Part shown: positions 13,697 to 43,318 of the stretch, piece after piece | Layout: each line of letters opens with the position of its first letter | Position numbering within the stretch: position 1 is the stretch's first letter | DNA from: an uncultured bacterium | Lineage (GTDB): Bacteria; Patescibacteriota; Minisyncoccia; Phycocordibacterales; DATDWN01 | DNA: 62,737 nucleotides | Direction: 5' to 3' | Assembly (NCBI GenBank): GCA_963727715.1 | Contig: CAVSGX010000008.1 | Span: forward strand, 1-62,737 | Program-made: the position numbers and the translations under genes | Notes under the pieces: model-generated | What the model was told of the DNA's origin: nothing | The model's input: only the letters and a program-made list of their open reading frames with translations | The model's database searches: none

Positions 13697-14696
13697 CGTT
13701 TCCGCACCCCTCAATTTAGACACTTCATTGAATCTAATAATACCTCTTTTGCTGTCCTAAATCCAAGACATTGACGAGGAATTTCGTTTAAAAACTTTTC
13801 AATTGAACGAAGCTCTTCTTCTGTGACTTCTCTCAAATCTTTTCTCTTTGGAACAAACACCCTGATCCATTTGTTTGTATTTTCAACCAAACCCTTTTCC
13901 CAGGAGTGATATGGGTGACAGAAATATATCGAACATTTTAGTTGTTTTTCCAGTTTCCTCCAACAATTAAATGCGATATCATTGTCTAGTGTAATTGTCT
14001 TGACTGGCATATTACGCAGAGAATCCAAGAAAGCACGCAATACCGTTGCGTGCTTTCTGTTTGGAATTTTGCGAGTGATGGTATCTCTGGAATATCGGTC
14101 AACCAAGACAAATAATGAACAAGCGTTGTGAGATGAGACAATGAAATCTCCCTCCCAGTGTCCAGATCTCTCCATTTTCGGTCTGTCTTCAATGTATTTT
14201 CTCTCATCGATGGCTTTACCGTATCTTTTCTTTTTCCAACCACTTTTCTTGTGGTGTTTTCTCCAAAACAGATATCTTTCCAAACATCTGGAATACACGA
14301 ATTTGTACACCGCTTTAGTTGAGATGTTTTTTCCTTGCAGTTTGAAATACCCTGATATTCTCTCCGGCGACCATCCTTCTTTCAATTTCTCCGGAATGAA
14401 TTTGGACAGTTCTCTGTCCAAAGCAGCTTTCATACACTGCTTCTTGCTTAAATATCTCCTCCAGTATGTTTTGTGGTGAGCTTTCTTGGCTACATACAAA
14501 CCTTTCACTTTCTTTTTCATTTCGTAGGCAATGCATGAATGGTGCCGGCCAAGTTTCTTTCCAATTTTCCTTGCACTCCAACCCTCGGAGAACAAAGCTG
14601 AAATCAAAACTCTTTCCTCGTATGACAAATGTTTAAATGTTTTCATATCACTCAATTATTTCTAACTGAGTGTCTAAATTCAAAGGTTAACTAACA
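13697..14696 (-). mobile_element. IS30-family insertion sequence, lineage B, copy 1 (1000 bp)
   Basis: Ends defined by comparing three copies; imperfect IRs sharing AATTTAGACACT; 3-bp direct repeat CTC (13694..13696 and 14697..14699). Confidence 0.9.
13711..14655 (-). CDS. IS30 family transposase
   Basis: 314 aa; protein identical to the ORF at 28228..29172; HPYHSWEKGLVENTNKWIR motif. Confidence 0.9.
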   Translation of the reverse strand: MSDMKTFKHLSYEERVLISALFSEGWSARKIGKKLGRHHSCIAYEMKKKVKGLYVAKKAHHKTYWRRYLSKKQCMKAALDRELSKFIPEKLKEGWSPERISGYFKLQGKNISTKAVYKFVYSRCLERYLFWRKHHKKSGWKKKRYGKAIDERKYIEDRPKMERSGHWEGDFIVSSHNACSLFVLVDRYSRDTITRKIPNRKHATVLRAFLDSLRNMPVKTITLDNDIAFNCWRKLEKQLKCSIYFCHPYHSWEKGLVENTNKWIRVFVPKRKDLREVTEEELRSIEKFLNEIPRQCLGFRTAKEVLLDSMKCLN

Positions 14697-27563: not shown

Positions 27564-27948
27564 GGGGGTGACAGGTTTTGACATAAAATTTGTATTGCCT
27601 CGGGCAAAGCAGAGCTCCGATAACTCTTTAAACTTTCGGAAAAAATAAGTGTAAAAAACTTATCTAGAGCTATCGTTTCTCCGTTCTACGGAATGAACGA
27701 CTTCGCTTTTTCTTACGCTTCGGCTTAAGAAAGGATTGCCTTCCCAACATCCGATAAGGATGGTTAATCCTCATAAAATTCGGATCCGGATGCTAGCCTG
27801 TCTCGTCTAGCATCTTCAAAATAGAGACTCGCTTTTGTGATGTTTTGTTTGCTTTATAGTCACGAAATCTAAAACCCAGAAACAAACTAAGCTTTGTAGA
27901 TTCGTTTCAATCGATTTTATGGATCCGGCTTCGACGCCGGCACTTCCA
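27564..27948 (+). ncRNA. ssrA: tmRNA (transfer-messenger RNA)
   Basis: 5' GGGGGTGACAGGTTTTGAC; 3' T arm CCGGC-TTCGAC-GCCGG then CACTTCC-A; acceptor GGGGGTG/CACTTCC with G3-U70; candidate tag frame ends ...NDFAFSYASA with TAA at 27726..27728; directly downstream of smpB. Confidence 0.8.
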
Positions 27949-28213
27949 CATCGTTGAACTGTTAGCGTACAAATTGGTCAAATATTGTTGTTTATCAACA
28001 CCTTTGTGCGTTTCTAACCTTTCAGAAATAGACTGTGCTTCGAAAGCCGCTTCTTGAATCGCAAGGAGCGGTTTTTCGGCTACAACATTGAACTTTTGGT
28101 CAATTAGCTGGTGTTTATAACCAAGAGAGGAAAGTATGCCACGCTTCTTGCTTGCAGATGTATTCTTATCCGAAAGACACGAGAACATATTATGTTTAAG
28201 GACAGAAAGACTT

Positions 28214-29213
28214 CGTTTCCGCACCCCTCAATTTAGACACTTCATTGAATCTAATAATACCTCTTTTGCTGTCCTAAATCCAAGACATTGACGAGGAATT
28301 TCGTTTAAAAACTTTTCAATTGAACGAAGCTCTTCTTCTGTGACTTCTCTCAAATCTTTTCTCTTTGGAACAAACACCCTGATCCATTTGTTTGTATTTT
28401 CAACCAAACCCTTTTCCCAGGAGTGATATGGGTGACAGAAATATATCGAACATTTTAGTTGTTTTTCCAGTTTCCTCCAACAATTAAATGCGATATCATT
28501 GTCTAGTGTAATTGTCTTGACTGGCATATTACGCAGAGAATCCAAGAAAGCACGCAATACCGTTGCGTGCTTTCTGTTTGGAATTTTGCGAGTGATGGTA
28601 TCTCTGGAATATCGGTCAACCAAGACAAATAATGAACAAGCGTTGTGAGATGAGACAATGAAATCTCCCTCCCAGTGTCCAGATCTCTCCATTTTCGGTC
28701 TGTCTTCAATGTATTTTCTCTCATCGATGGCTTTACCGTATCTTTTCTTTTTCCAACCACTTTTCTTGTGGTGTTTTCTCCAAAACAGATATCTTTCCAA
28801 ACATCTGGAATACACGAATTTGTACACCGCTTTAGTTGAGATGTTTTTTCCTTGCAGTTTGAAATACCCTGATATTCTCTCCGGCGACCATCCTTCTTTC
28901 AATTTCTCCGGAATGAATTTGGACAGTTCTCTGTCCAAAGCAGCTTTCATACACTGCTTCTTGCTTAAATATCTCCTCCAGTATGTTTTGTGGTGAGCTT
29001 TCTTGGCTACATACAAACCTTTCACTTTCTTTTTCATTTCGTAGGCAATGCATGAATGGTGCCGGCCAAGTTTCTTTCCAATTTTCCTTGCACTCCAACC
29101 CTCGGAGAACAAAGCTGAAATCAAAACTCTTTCCTCGTATGACAAATGTTTAAATGTTTTCATATCACTCAATTATTTCTAACTGAGTGTCTAAATTCAA
29201 AGGTTAACTAACA
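28214..29213 (-). mobile_element. IS30-family insertion sequence, lineage B, copy 2 (1000 bp)
   Basis: Same ends as copies 1 and 3; flanking triplets differ (CTT versus TGA), so there is no target-site duplication. Confidence 0.9.
28228..29172 (-). CDS. IS30 family transposase
   Basis: 314 aa, protein identical to 13711..14655. Confidence 0.9.
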   Translation of the reverse strand: MSDMKTFKHLSYEERVLISALFSEGWSARKIGKKLGRHHSCIAYEMKKKVKGLYVAKKAHHKTYWRRYLSKKQCMKAALDRELSKFIPEKLKEGWSPERISGYFKLQGKNISTKAVYKFVYSRCLERYLFWRKHHKKSGWKKKRYGKAIDERKYIEDRPKMERSGHWEGDFIVSSHNACSLFVLVDRYSRDTITRKIPNRKHATVLRAFLDSLRNMPVKTITLDNDIAFNCWRKLEKQLKCSIYFCHPYHSWEKGLVENTNKWIRVFVPKRKDLREVTEEELRSIEKFLNEIPRQCLGFRTAKEVLLDSMKCLN

Positions 29214-29247
29214 TGAGAATCGAAATCCAAGAAAGGAGTTTTTTCAA

Positions 29248-29664
29248 ATGCCCGGAACAAGAATCGCAATCTGGCCGGATAACCGTCCGGAAAAAGTTAT
29301 TCGCAAAAGTCTTTGGTGGCAGTGGTCAATTGTGATCGCACTGGTCACATGGATCATGTGGTTCACCACGAATCACTACAACGGCAAGTCATTCCTGGTT
29401 CCTCTTTCGGTCACCCTGATCGGAGTAGGAGTTGGCTGGCTCTTCGGATACAAGCTCGGCTTCGGTCCGGTCTTCTCCAGTACCTACATTTTCTCAGCGG
29501 AGCGAGTTATCAACCCGGCCGAGAAACCGTGGCACAAAACAACCTGTCCCCAGTGCAAACGCAATAACTGCGACGCCATGGGGTACAGAAACGCTCAAAC
29601 CATTTACAACTGTCCGGATTGTGGTTATCACGACACGGTCTGGACTGGTTTCGCCAAGATCTAA
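29248..29664 (+). CDS. membrane protein with a C-terminal zinc-ribbon (CPQC...CPDC)
   Basis: 138 aa; two TM helices; GGAG SD upstream; visibly GC-richer; its 3' end runs into the shared module at 29662..29753. Confidence 0.55.
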   Translation: MPGTRIAIWPDNRPEKVIRKSLWWQWSIVIALVTWIMWFTTNHYNGKSFLVPLSVTLIGVGVGWLFGYKLGFGPVFSSTYIFSAERVINPAEKPWHKTTCPQCKRNNCDAMGYRNAQTIYNCPDCGYHDTVWTGFAKI

Positions 29665-29753
29665 CAACCGCCCACACCGGCGACAAAATCCGGTGAATGG
29701 TGGGCCTGTCCCGTAGGGAGCTCTGCTCTCCTACGGGATTTTGTTTGTAAAAA
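29662..29753 (+). repeat. shared structured 3' module plus terminator, copy 1
   Basis: About 90 nt homologous to the reverse complement of 41845..41933; a first helix with compensatory changes, then the identical hairpin CCCGTAGGGAGCTCTGCTCTCCTACGGG plus a T-run. Confidence 0.8.
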
Positions 29754-29773
29754 TTTTGTTATATAATATTGTC

Positions 29774-30157
29774 ATGTCTCAAAGATCATTTATTCTCGCC
29801 TACTTGGAGTGGCATTACTCTCGAGCTTTCGCCGATATTTGGAACACTTGCACCAATTACATCTGGTTTATTTATAATTTTTTCTCAATCTCGCTTTTGT
29901 TTAGAACTTTTTTCACTCCGTGGCATAAAATGGACGTGCAGTATGGAAAGGGGTTGGATATGGAGAATTTTTTCGGCCCGTTTATCGTCAACACTTTGAT
30001 GAGATTGGTTGGTATGGTTTTGCGCGCTGTCATTATTATCATCGGTTTTGTTTGCGTGCTGGTTACTTTCCTGTTGGGCGTCCTCTGTCTCGTCATTTGG
30101 CCTTTTTTGCCTTTCATTTTGGTTTATATCGCCTATCGAGGACTTTTGAAAATTTAA
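29774..30157 (+). CDS. hypothetical polytopic membrane protein
   Basis: 127 aa from the ATG at 29774; TATAAT at 29762..29767, 6 nt upstream; translationally adjacent to the Clp-like ATPase. Confidence 0.55.
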   Translation: MSQRSFILAYLEWHYSRAFADIWNTCTNYIWFIYNFFSISLLFRTFFTPWHKMDVQYGKGLDMENFFGPFIVNTLMRLVGMVLRAVIIIIGFVCVLVTFLLGVLCLVIWPFLPFILVYIAYRGLLKI

Positions 30158-30158
30158 T

Positions 30159-32588
30159 ATGGACTACAAAACATTGACAGAAGAAATGGAAAAATACGCG
30201 CCGGCCATAAATCTGGACAGAGTCATTCCTTTTGGTTTGCGAAAATTTTTCAAAACGGCTTTTTTTCTGTTGGTTGTTGTCTTTCTATTTGTCTCTATCG
30301 TTTCCCTTTTCTATCAGACAATCCCATCTCATCTTTTTCAAGGACTTTCAATGGTTTTTTTCGCTCTTTGGCTCCTCTTCTTCTGTCTGGACACTTTTTA
30401 CTACTCTTTTTATTTTGACGATTTGCCGATAGTAGTCAGAGAAGTTTGTTTCAAAAATCCGACTGTTTCCGGAAGTTTTTTGACAGCATCTGTTCTGGTT
30501 GGAAATGAAGAGGATTTGGTGATCAGACTGTTAAAATCTTCCGCCGGAAAAATGTTGGCTTCGCGCTTGGGTGTTTCTAAAAAAGAAATTGATGATTTTT
30601 TAATCAACAAAAAAAATCCCGAGAGGCTGGCCGAATTTCAAATAAACATTAATGGGAAAAATAGTTTGTTTGAATCTTACCTATCTTCCCTTTGTCAGCT
30701 TGATAAAGAATTTGCCGATTTTCTTTTTCGTTATGCCATAAGAGACAGGGAGCTCTGCGGAGCGGGTGGATGGATTGTCAAAAAATCCGAAAAAGAAAAA
30801 AGGAAGAGGCGGTTTTGGGGACGAGATGTTTTGGGCAGAATAAAAGGCGTCGGCAAGGACTGGTCTTATGGACAGACTTACGAAATCCAAAAGTATGGAG
30901 GCAGGATGGAGGATTTGTACGATTTTTCTTCACGCGGTTTGTCGCAACACACAAAAGAGGTGTCAGAAATTGAAAATATTTTGTCTCGCAGAAGCGAGGG
31001 CAATGTCCTTTTGGTAGCCGATGACGACTTGGGGAAAACGGATATCATTATAGAATTTTGTAAAAAAATAATGAGTGGCAGAGTTTTGCCGGCTCTTGAA
31101 CACAAGGTTGTTTTTACTTTAGATGTGGGGGCTATAACTGTATCCTGCGCCAGTAAAGACAAATTTGAAAAACAGTTTTTGGCAATTATGAACCAAGCCG
31201 AACGGGCTGAAAATATTATTCTGGTCATTGATGATTTGCCTGGAGCGATAAACGCCGCTTCAAGTTTGGGCAGCGATCTTCTGGCACTATTTTATCCTTA
31301 CTTGTCGTCGCCTCTTCTGCAGATCATTGCCGGTTCGGACATCAAAAGTTTTCACGAGAGAGTTGAAAACAATATCACCCTTTCCGAAAAATTTGAAAAA
31401 ATAATTTTAAACGAGGACAATCAGGACAGCCTGATAAGTCTTTTGGAGGAAAGGGCTGACGATCTGGAGGAAAGAGAGGGTGTCTTCTTTACCTACCAAG
31501 CCATTCTGGAGATCGCTGAGGATGTTTTGCGTTATTTCGGCGGGCAGATTGTTATGGATAAAGCTTTGGATATTCTTTTGGAGTTGCCCCAAATCGCAGT
31601 CAAACAAAATCGCAGAATAATCGGCAAAAAGGAAGTGGCAGAGTTGGTGGAAACTAAAACCGGCGTGCCAACGGGTGAAATCGCGACTGCCGAAAAAGAA
31701 AAACTTTTGAATTTGGAAAATATTTTGCATCAAAGAATCATTGGCCAGGACGAAGCCATAAAAGCCATCAGTAGCGCCTTGCGTCGAGCTCGCTCAGGTA
31801 TTGAATCCAAAAACCGCCCACTCGGCTCGTTTCTTTTTCTCGGCCCGACCGGCGTGGGCAAAACAGAAACAACCAAAGCTTTGGCTGAAGTATTTTTCGG
31901 CGATGAAAACAAGATTATGCGTTTGGATATGTCCGAATACAATTCCGGCGATTCTCTGGAACGCTTGATTGGTTCTTTTGAGGGGAGCAAACAAGGTGTT
32001 CTCTCTTCCCTGTTACGCGAAAATCAGTATGGTGTTTTGCTTTTGGACGAATTTGAAAAGGCCGAAAACAAAGTGCATGATTTGTTTTTGCAGATTTTGG
32101 ACGAAGGAATTTTCTCCGATATGCTCGGCAAGAAGGTTAACGCTCGCAATCTGATTATTATCGCCACTTCGAATGCCGGCAGTGACATCATTTGGGATTT
32201 AGTCAAACAATCCAAGAATTTAGCCGAAAACAAGCAGGCAGTCATCGAGACTATCGTCCATCAAGGTATCTTTCGTCCGGAACTTTTGAACCGTTTTGAT
32301 GGTGTTATTCTTTTTCATCCGCTTGATGAAAATCTTTTGAAGCAAGTGACAACACTCATGCTCCGGAAACTTTCCAAAAGACTTGAAGAAAAAAGTTTAA
32401 AACTGCGCATCACCGATGAATTGGTGAACTATCTTGTTAAAATCGGCAGTGATCCGGCTTTCGGTGCCCGTCCGATCAACCGAGCTATCCAAGATCAAGT
32501 TGAGGAGACAATCGCCAAAAAGCTGATCGCCGGCGAGGTGAGACCCGGCTCCGAAGTTGTCTTGACCGAAGCCGACTTGCAGAAATAG
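30159..32588 (+). CDS. Clp/Hsp100-family AAA+ ATPase with an N-terminal transmembrane region and a degenerate first Walker A
   Basis: 809 aa; two to three N-terminal TM helices; NBD1 has VADDDLGKTD where GEPGVGKT is expected; NBD2 is canonical (GPTGVGKTETTKALA, LLLDEFEKA, sensor region GARPINRAI). Confidence 0.8.
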   Translation: MDYKTLTEEMEKYAPAINLDRVIPFGLRKFFKTAFFLLVVVFLFVSIVSLFYQTIPSHLFQGLSMVFFALWLLFFCLDTFYYSFYFDDLPIVVREVCFKNPTVSGSFLTASVLVGNEEDLVIRLLKSSAGKMLASRLGVSKKEIDDFLINKKNPERLAEFQININGKNSLFESYLSSLCQLDKEFADFLFRYAIRDRELCGAGGWIVKKSEKEKRKRRFWGRDVLGRIKGVGKDWSYGQTYEIQKYGGRMEDLYDFSSRGLSQHTKEVSEIENILSRRSEGNVLLVADDDLGKTDIIIEFCKKIMSGRVLPALEHKVVFTLDVGAITVSCASKDKFEKQFLAIMNQAERAENIILVIDDLPGAINAASSLGSDLLALFYPYLSSPLLQIIAGSDIKSFHERVENNITLSEKFEKIILNEDNQDSLISLLEERADDLEEREGVFFTYQAILEIAEDVLRYFGGQIVMDKALDILLELPQIAVKQNRRIIGKKEVAELVETKTGVPTGEIATAEKEKLLNLENILHQRIIGQDEAIKAISSALRRARSGIESKNRPLGSFLFLGPTGVGKTETTKALAEVFFGDENKIMRLDMSEYNSGDSLERLIGSFEGSKQGVLSSLLRENQYGVLLLDEFEKAENKVHDLFLQILDEGIFSDMLGKKVNARNLIIIATSNAGSDIIWDLVKQSKNLAENKQAVIETIVHQGIFRPELLNRFDGVILFHPLDENLLKQVTTLMLRKLSKRLEEKSLKLRITDELVNYLVKIGSDPAFGARPINRAIQDQVEETIAKKLIAGEVRPGSEVVLTEADLQK

Positions 32589-32641
32589 AAAAATTATGTT
32601 AGCTTTCAGACAAGTTCCGTGATTAAAATTAACCAAACAAG

Positions 32642-33151
32642 TTGATACAAAGAATAAAAATAAACAACCAAATTCAAGCGCTGGAGCTCCGGGTGATCGG
32701 AGAAAATGGAGAAAATTTCGGCGTGCTGTCTTTTAAAGAAGCCATTGAAAAAGCTCGCGAAGCCGGGGCCGATCTGATTGAGATTTCGCCGGGAGCGATG
32801 CCACCAGTTGCAAAAATCATGGATTATGGTAAGTTTCAATACGCTGAAAACAAAAAATTGAAAGTGGCCAAAACAAAAGTTCGCACGGTTGAAATCAAAA
32901 ATATTCAAATCAAAGTCGGCACCGGAGAACACGATTTGGAATTGAAAGCCAAGAAGGCTTCGGAGTGGCTCTCCGAAGGAAACAGAGTAAAGATAGACTT
33001 GTTTTTAATGGGCAGAAGCAAATATATGGAACTGAATTTTTTGAAAGAAAGAATGGAAAGAGTGCTCAAACTTATCACGGCAGAGTACAAGATAGCCGAT
33101 CCGGCCAAAAAGAGTCCAAAGGGGTTGTCAGTAATCATTGAGAAAGCTTAA
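32642..33151 (+). CDS. infC: translation initiation factor IF-3
   Basis: 169 aa; LRVIGENGE...PPVAKIMDYGKFQY; non-ATG start (TTG 32642 or ATA 32645), as is common for infC. Confidence 0.9.
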   Translation: MIQRIKINNQIQALELRVIGENGENFGVLSFKEAIEKAREAGADLIEISPGAMPPVAKIMDYGKFQYAENKKLKVAKTKVRTVEIKNIQIKVGTGEHDLELKAKKASEWLSEGNRVKIDLFLMGRSKYMELNFLKERMERVLKLITAEYKIADPAKKSPKGLSVIIEKA

Positions 33152-41844: not shown

Positions 41845-41933
41845 TTTTTTTACAAACAAAAACCCCGTAGGAGAGCAGAGCTCCCTACGGGCAGGTCCGC
41901 CCTCCACGGATTTTGTGCCCGTGTGGGCGGTTA
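41845..41933 (-). repeat. shared structured 3' module plus terminator, copy 2
   Basis: Reverse complement aligns with 29662..29753, with identical terminator hairpin sequence. Confidence 0.8.
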
Positions 41934-41935
41934 GT

Positions 41936-42307
41936 TTACGTTTTGTGATAGTAGAATCTTCCGAAGCCGTCGCGCTGACGGAGGAAGATCTTGACCGGGA
42001 TGAAATCCCGCGAGATTTCGAACTTCTCTCCGTCGACTCCGTTACAATAACCGAAAATATACATATCCGGCAATTGTCCAAAGAAGCCACTGTTGTCCTG
42101 TTCGACCCCTGTGACCACGACAGAAACAACGTGGTTGTTGCCGTTGTCGAGTTGCCCCTCCTCTTCGATAGTGAAAGAAACAGTCTTCGAGTAATCACCG
42201 AACTTCCGAAAAAGGGAGCTGGCAATTTCAATCTGGCTGGGGCTACGGAGAACCCGCAGGTCAAACTTCGTATTCCTCAAAACATTCAAAAAAGAACCTT
42301 TGTCCAT
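41936..42307 (-). CDS. hypothetical protein
   Basis: 123-aa ORF; start codon 10 nt from the IS-B copy 3 end; followed by the shared 3' module. Confidence 0.5.
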   Translation of the reverse strand: MDKGSFLNVLRNTKFDLRVLRSPSQIEIASSLFRKFGDYSKTVSFTIEEEGQLDNGNNHVVSVVVTGVEQDNSGFFGQLPDMYIFGYCNGVDGEKFEISRDFIPVKIFLRQRDGFGRFYYHKT

Positions 42308-42317
42308 ACGGTTTGTT

Positions 42318-43318
42318 TGTTAGTTAACCTTTGAATTTAGACACTCAGTTAGAAATAATTGAGTGATATGAAAACATTTAAACATTTGTCATACGAGGAA
42401 AGAGTTTTGATTTCAGCTTTGTTCTCCGAGGGTTGGAGTGCAAGGAAAATTGGAAAGAAACTTGGCCGGCACCGTTCATGCATTGCCTACGAAATGAAAA
42501 AGAAAGTGAAAGGTTTGTATGTAGCCAAGAAAGCTCACCACAAAACATACTGGAGGAGATATTTAAGCAAGAAGCAGTGTATGAAAGCTGCTTTGGACAG
42601 AGAACTGTCCAAATTCATTCCGGAGAAATTGAAAGAAGGATGGTCGCCGGAGAGAATATCAGGGTATTTCAAACTGCAAGGAAAAAACATCTCAACTAAA
42701 GCGGTGTACAAATTCGTGTATTCCAGATGTTTGGAAAGATATCTGTTTTGGAGAAAACACCACAAAGAAAAGTGGTTGGAAAAAGAAAAGATACGGTAAA
42801 GCCATCGATGAGAGAAAATACATTGAAGACAGACCGAAAATGGAGAGATCTGGACACTGGGAGGGAGATTTCATTGTCTCATCTCACAACGCTTGTTCAT
42901 TATTTGTCTTGGTTGACCGATATTCCAGAGATACCATCACTCGCAAAATTCCAAACAGAAAGCACGCAACGGTATTGCGTGCTTTCTTGGATTCTCTGCG
43001 TAATATGCCAGTCAAGACAATTACACTAGACAATGATATCGCATTTAATTGTTGGAGGAAACTGGAAAAACAACTAAAATGTTCGATATATTTCTGTCAC
43101 CCATATCACTCCTGGGAAAAGGGTTTGGTTGAAAATACAAACAAATGGATCAGGGTGTTTGTTCCAAAGAGAAAAGATTTGAGAGAAGTCACAGAAGAAG
43201 AGCTTCGTTCAATTGAAAAGTTTTTAAACGAAATTCCTCGTCAATGTCTTGGATTTAGGACAGCAAAAGAGGTATTATTAGATTCAATGAAGTGTCTAAA
43301 TTGAGGGGTGCGGAAACG
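42318..43318 (+). mobile_element. IS30-family insertion sequence, lineage B, copy 3 (1001 bp)
   Basis: Same ends as copies 1 and 2; 3-bp direct repeat GTT (42315..42317 and 43319..43321); one extra A compared with the other copies. Confidence 0.9.
42359..43304 (+). pseudogene. IS30 family transposase, frameshifted copy
   Basis: CACAAAGAAAAG here versus CACAAGAAAAG in copies 1 and 2 (extra A at 42774..42776) splits the ORF into 42359..42799 and 42840..43304; also one His-to-Arg change. Confidence 0.85.

Follow-up and report, generated by a model that had tools for sequence, protein, structure and literature searches.

The tail of about 90 nt that follows two unrelated ORFs in the window is a composite of two separate hairpin elements, H1 and H2, each of which occurs separately elsewhere. 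The window is the whole contig C8 (62,737 nt), one of the 10 contigs of a 755-kb genome with 42% G+C. As the sequence-only reading of this DNA had described, the two tails (w1 at 29666–29753, forward strand, and w2 at 41932–41847, reverse strand) are homologous, with 89% identity over an alignment of 89 nt. Exactly two copies are present in the 10-contig genome, 12 kb apart. Both fold into two hairpins, with z-scores of −5.05 and −5.48 against shuffled sequences. When the tail was used as a query against 60 relatives, its two halves were matched separately. The H1+H2 composite is absent outside this genome among genome contigs, metagenome contigs and IMG/VR, which were scanned with patterns able to catch it. 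It is moderately probable that this composite is a terminator tail in which H1 belongs to exchanged orphan genes, H2 was inserted later and copied once, and the adjacent insertion sequences (IS) arrived independently.

The two parts can be delimited precisely. H1 of w1 (29667–29703, forward strand) contains an outer G+C helix of 5–6 bp, a small internal loop, a 6-bp inner helix and an A-rich loop. H2 of w1 (29704–29739, forward strand) is a hairpin whose 12-bp stem contains one bulged T and whose loop has 3 nt, and lies between the H1 stem and the T-run. The T-rich tract of w1 (29738–29753, forward strand) thus stands after H2; in relatives with H1 only, the outer stem is directly followed by the same tract. 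In w2, H1 (41897–41931, reverse strand) is near the family consensus. It is followed by H2 (41862–41896, reverse strand), which has private states in common with w1, and by the T-rich tract (41845–41862, reverse strand); a separate hairpin ending a convergent M48 peptidase gene lies just beyond. The second hairpin is identical between the tails (29710–29737 and 41890–41863), as claimed earlier, while the T-rich run is only nearly so. The H1 halves are ~78% identical and the H2 halves ~92–95%.

H1 of w1 scores 55 bits against the covariance model R1, and H1 of w2 scores 57 bits. The first helix had been said to covary between the two tails, with its outer part present in two versions. One true flip (C-G to G-C) and one change from G-C to G-U are indeed found in the inner helix, but the two tails do not differ in the 5' strand of the outer helix. 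Its two versions are a change of the 3' strand alone, readable as G-U wobble or as a shifted register, and this 3' strand of w1 is aberrant against all other H1 copies. Covariation was borne out with more copies: in 33 aligned H1 family members, 95.5% of cells are paired and 11 of 13 pairs show double changes, a level reached by 0 of 500 shuffles, although this alignment leans towards structure because it was fitted to the model.

H1 without H2, nearly base-identical, stands in at least 12 other genomes or metagenome contigs; pattern scans detected it in six genomes and seven further contigs, all of Patescibacteria type. The scans covered one genome per species plus metagenome contigs, and some of the H1 contigs look like the same organisms as the H1 genomes. 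Counted over at least 10 genomes or contigs, at least 13 different orphan ORFs have H1 on their 3' side; they show no relationship to one another in pairwise comparison and usually exceed their contigs in GC. The gap from the stop codon to H1 is −1 to 25 nt. None of about 20 ORFs upstream of H1-type hairpins matched Pfam or PHROG, in a set that takes in more diverged H1-type terminators of a same-family genome. H1 is the only motif shared across the 13 loci; no 5' motif was shared by more than 3 of the 13 instances when 1.5 kb upstream and 400 nt downstream were searched. The arrangement of a variable ORF with a conserved structured 3' site, proposed from the two tails, therefore stands for H1 beyond this genome, but not for the 90-nt module as a unit. 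As a single cassette site, the tail fails, since H2 is dispersed as a repeat in its own right and the composite is confined to this genome.

H1 reads as a predicted intrinsic terminator because it begins within 25 nt of the ORF stop and a T-run comes after it. It is a G+C-rich hairpin on the coding strand, downstream of the stop codon, with an immediate T/U-run. In these features and in its compensatory changes it is like Rho-independent terminators, including tandem ones. With the covariance model applied to 150 genomes of the order, H1 grades into the ordinary terminators of the lineage, and a two-tier H1 subtype recurs in which both helices are kept via compensatory changes. Unlike ordinary terminators, H1 hardly changes in sequence from one unrelated gene to the next, even across families, and this extends to its loop and internal loop. 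Its identity is 96–100% between genomes of different families, whereas the tmRNA and smpB of those genomes are ~68–74% identical to those of the window's genome. This difference favours recent horizontal spread and disfavours vertical conservation, so the H1 copies appear to have spread horizontally and recently.

The conservation of the H1 loop and internal loop, and of nearly the whole H2 stem, goes beyond what pairing needs. It could reflect a 3'-UTR-derived small RNA or a protein-binding regulatory element with a role beyond termination. Recent spread explains the same conservation equally well, however, and Rfam gave no match to the tail at gathering or permissive thresholds, which makes a regulatory role of this kind very unlikely. 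A displaced copy of the tmRNA 3' end was also considered as the source of H1 and rejected, there being no similarity.

The closest analogues of the tail and its genes are intrinsic terminators, phage PeSL or moron units, and REP elements. In T4-type phages, PeSL (promoter/stem-loop) cassettes are small orphan ORFs bounded by conserved regulatory sequence (PMC2839356, PMC4122927). Like PeSL cassettes and phage morons, the H1 units are self-contained and deviate in composition, and a conserved stem-loop offers homology for shuffling (PMC2839356, PMC4122927). Unlike PeSL, the H1 units reside in a cellular CPR chromosome, the 3' element alone is conserved, and no phage link was found in IMG/VR. 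A phage origin of H1 or H2 was rejected, H1 being absent from the IMG/VR scan and H2 having one viral match. That sole match is an H2-like hairpin at L021:8968–9008, where it comes straight after a stop codon; the viral contig is GC-rich.

The surroundings of w1 resemble the H1 loci of other genomes in part. The tmRNA gene (ssrA, 27564–27951, forward strand) is 1.7 kb upstream of w1. From there to a conserved gene at 32642–33151, the content of the interval (27952–32640) differs in all five relatives compared (L143–L147), and its length is 1.8–2.7 kb in them against 4.7 kb here. The region behind ssrA looks like a variable hotspot. In five genomes, a tRNA or tmRNA gene precedes H1 on the same strand at a distance of 0.6–3.9 kb; in three (this one, G013 and G051) the gene is ssrA and the distance is 1.7–3.9 kb. 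Displaced tRNA-end copies accompany H1 in two of the five genomes, and G013 contains a weaker look-alike of the tmRNA end. In L038, H1 closes a GC-rich block 3 kb behind tRNA-Tyr, with two tRNA-end copies between. In L005, a promoter stands no more than 2 nt behind a copy of the tRNA-Glu end, and an ORF and H1 come next. The tRNA-end copies lie behind intact tRNA genes and bound inserts of 230–930 nt (L005:1960–2230 for Glu; L038:520–815 and 1735–1750 for Tyr). A large serine recombinase is present at two H1 loci. In G051 a gene for a large serine recombinase is 143 nt from the 3' end of the tmRNA gene.

These features are shared with tRNA/tmRNA-anchored island stacks of the tycheposon or SCC type, which site-specific recombinases make: the H1 units of relatives are placed behind tRNA-Tyr, tRNA-Glu or ssrA, displaced tRNA-end copies occur, and two loci have a large serine recombinase. 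The window differs from such stacks. A copy of the tmRNA 3' end was not found in its genome, w2 is near no tRNA gene, and its contig has no recombinase. A recombinase linked to the tails had been suggested for checking; this genome does encode serine recombinases and one tyrosine recombinase, all of them on other contigs.

If H1 itself were a recombination site, attC-like or another folded site, then each ORF with its H1 would be a true gene cassette. Several facts are in line with this: the combination of variable ORF and conserved structured 3' element in many genomes, the sharp 5' border a few nucleotides after the stop codon, the conserved loop and internal loop, the enrichment behind tRNA/tmRNA genes, and the two loci with a large serine recombinase. 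Like attC, H1 is structured and stands 3' of variable ORFs that lack a promoter or are small. Unlike attC, it has no R''/R' cores, no array and no IntI, it has a terminator-type T-run, and it is much shorter than most attC sites. The earlier statement that the tail does not fit integron attC is confirmed by the missing RYYYAAC/GTTRRRY core sites in 13 aligned copies and by H1 stem flanks that are not complementary. Instead of a cassette array beside an IntI-type gene, the genome has two dispersed copies and its only tyrosine recombinase on another contig. Elsewhere, too, H1 arrays are missing, and each genome checked with a near-exact pattern has at most two dispersed copies. At both stacked loci that were examined, tRNA-end copies form the junctions, and the small units of the stack are without H1. 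H1 accordingly has the look of cargo (a terminator) rather than of a recombination site. The absence of a recombinase on the window's contig and of a conserved partner motif (1.5 kb upstream, 400 nt downstream) also argues against it, and a hairpin with a T-run is the very form that a terminator needs. It is decidedly improbable that ORF-plus-H1 units are such cassettes, and a recombination role for H1 or for the tail is most probably wrong.

A broader possibility is that H1 is the signature 3' element of an undescribed mobile pool of single genes in Saccharibacteria-like CPR, where it would do more than terminate and serve as a handle for capture or exchange, and that H2 is a second, independent mobile hairpin. 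A recombinase could then carry this out, or natural transformation could be followed by homology-guided swapping. This is quite unlikely. If true, genes would be shuffled in an integron-like manner through a site of another kind. Under the composite-terminator explanation, which is preferred here, H1 would be a two-tier terminator hairpin of conserved sequence which, in this order of Patescibacteria, closes small orphan genes that are horizontally exchanged and usually GC-richer. Such genes would be self-contained units of promoter, ORF and terminator, often in variable stacks behind tRNA/tmRNA genes, and the two ORFs of the window would be two of these units, each with its own H1.

H2 belongs to a family of dispersed palindromes of ~38 nt. 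A scan of 401 genomes of the order that tolerated a single mismatch detected the family in 42, and a reversed-pattern control gave ~3 matches. Its copy number reaches 29 in a 0.5-Mb genome (G272). The stem is almost invariant. Two pairs covary (U-A, C-G, G-C) and set two subfamilies, and one bulged T is conserved. The family was noted in G202, G087 and G105 as well as in G272, and in some genomes partial or related palindromes with the same outer stem are found nearby. The window's own genome contains two more copies, C3:46585–46605 and C10:9520–9540.

H2 is thus a short imperfect palindrome, dispersed, intergenic and multi-copy, as REP elements are. It is like REP/BIME in being an intergenic multi-copy palindrome of ~38 nt with a conserved bulge, few covarying pairs and two subfamilies. 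It is unlike them in its low copy number (1–29 per genome) and in that the copies are not arranged around Y1 (RAYT-like) transposase genes. Y1_Tnp genes are present in five of five H2-rich genomes, but also in three of five H2-negative genomes, and no H2 flanks the Y1_Tnp genes at the four loci inspected. A REP/RAYT link for H2 is unsupported on these grounds. H2 is a REP-like repeat in a group where a literature search turned up none.

The w1 and w2 copies of H2 are distinguished by three private states: a G-C pair at a variable position, the lack of another bulged T beside the first, and a common loop. These states are missing from the other two H2 copies of the genome. In addition, the metagenome contig L140 carries the w1-type allele of H1, which is directly followed by the same T-tract, without H2. 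L140 can effectively be taken as a putative empty site for the H2 insertion. By this comparison, a copy of the REP-like palindrome would have entered between the H1 stem and the U-tract. Since the U-tract now comes after H2, H2 is most likely the terminating hairpin, and H1 would be left as an upstream stem-loop that may protect the 3' end. Counting against this, the bulged H2 hairpin was missed by a simple scan for terminators.

How two tails came to have the same insertion can be explained in two ways. The same private H2 variant is found at the same place in both, and H2 has no general attraction to terminators, so a single origin is most likely. We infer that the composite arose once and that the second H1 then acquired it by gene conversion, a homologous exchange through the shared flanks. 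Alternatively, two independent insertions of H2 may have occurred, each homing to the point where the H1 stem meets the T-run. Two insertions are favoured by the H1 halves, which have diverged more than the H2 halves, by the H2 flanks, where the register differs by one base between w1 and w2, and by the several H2 copies in two genomes that are located just after other terminators. In a broader sample, however, a terminator-like hairpin was within 80 nt upstream of only 3 of 30 H2 copies, compared with 2 of 30 in the control, and homing of H2 to terminators was rejected. The three private states common to both tails speak against two insertions as well, as does the result that no Y1 transposase gene was found in this genome. 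Two independent insertions are unlikely.

Copying from one tail to the other is not free of difficulty. The difference between ~78% and 92–95% counts against a single recent copying event, unless H2 is more constrained or the 3' strand of w1 changed later, with either of which it is compatible. Also counting against the preferred explanation as a whole are the marginal GC excess of the second ORF, the distance of w2 from any tRNA gene, the lack of a tmRNA-end copy, and the lack of H1 in IMG/VR.

CPR/Patescibacteria genomes are tiny and rich in orphan genes whose origin and turnover are poorly understood. H1 could be used there as a searchable tag for recently exchanged genes, and H1 together with the tRNA-end copies would give a handle on how variable regions are built.

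The other repeated neighbour of the two ORFs is IS-B. Its transposase belongs to the IS30 family (NF033563 at 204 bits, cut-off 80; Pfam HTH_38 and rve), and an imperfect inverted repeat is found near both ends. The genome contains six copies: 13697–14696, 28214–29213 and 42318–43318 in the window, and C7:15300–16299, C4:119411–120410 and C5:48305–49304. Copy B (28214–29213, reverse strand) lies between the tmRNA gene and ORF1 and encodes an intact transposase of 314 aa. It has no target duplication, which suggests rearrangement beside the tmRNA gene. Copy C (42318–43318, forward strand) has a 3-bp target duplication (AAC on the gene strand) and by its insertion separates the ribosome-binding site of ORF2 from the ATG. 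Its transposase gene is split into 42359–42799 (146 aa) and 42840–43304 (154 aa), although identity to the intact copy is 99.8%; copy C was probably inactivated recently. The copy on C7 likewise separates a ribosome-binding site from its ATG, and another IS-like element ends directly beside copy A.

Exactly as first noticed, each ORF lies outside the transposase-5' end of an IS-B copy and points away from it; the distance from this end to the ORF start is 34 nt for ORF1 and 10 nt for ORF2. The same geometry, with a gene start 5–140 nt outside this end and pointing away, is seen at all six copies, and four of them adjoin tail-less genes, namely the gene for ribosomal protein S10 and three others. 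The adjacency therefore cannot be counted as part of a cassette organisation. Target duplications of 3–4 bp are present at five of the six copies and flank the IS alone. Because of this and of the geometry common to all six, the adjacency is attributed to a preference of IS insertion or retention, the ORFs not being carried by the IS. Several copies have a pair of promoter-like hexamers and a ribosome-binding site just outside the other end, which places the IS between these signals for expression and the start codon.

That both ORFs abut the same IS end might also mean that the IS mobilised each ORF together with its tail, the tail acting as a surrogate IS end in a composite or one-ended transposon. 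The 3-bp duplication around copy C alone already contradicts this. The tail is dissimilar to the IS ends, and the four other copies have the same geometry beside unrelated genes without a tail, which leaves such mobilisation extremely improbable. Under the favoured explanation, the IS30-family element would have arrived independently beside each ORF, inserting near purine-rich end-like sites upstream of gene starts. The target flanks of IS-B show a purine-rich motif of the AGG type that resembles the IS's own end, which suggests a target choice that is end-like or RBS-like. IS30 target behaviour is reportedly the subject of a published review (PMC9333248). For annotation, the two loci caution against concluding that a cassette system is present wherever 3' tails are shared and an IS is adjacent. 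What the sequence-only reading observed is largely real, and its interpretation is half right.

The two ORFs are as different as originally stated (blastp E > 1). Neither ORF1 nor ORF2 gave a match above cut-off in Pfam, PHROG or NCBIfam, and neither was found in one same-genus genome and four other genomes. ORF2 (41936–42307, reverse strand, 123 aa) is an orphan; no relative was found among 5.8 billion clustered proteins, and a protein atlas gave no lead. The M48 peptidase gene flanking w2 was not found in five relatives, so these provide no orthologous empty site for w2. Both ORFs had been described as GC-richer than their surroundings. This is clear for ORF1 (0.517, the top 5–6% of the genome) but marginal for ORF2 (0.48, the top 15%).

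ORF1 (29248–29664, forward strand, 138 aa) has a good ribosome-binding site 8 nt before its ATG. The protein consists of an N-terminal two-helix membrane module (residues 1–93) and a 45-aa extension with the four cysteines of a zinc ribbon; the extension has a weak Zn-ribbon match, below cut-off, and a search for a short homologue of it found none. Its three homologues are metagenomic proteins of 87–93 aa with 66–77% identity, and since they span residues 1–93 only, the 45-aa C-terminus is private to ORF1. ORF1 may be a 93-aa membrane protein with a 3' fusion or read-through into new sequence. Elsewhere in the window, the segment 40685–40877 matches many dispersed places in same-genus and same-family genomes.
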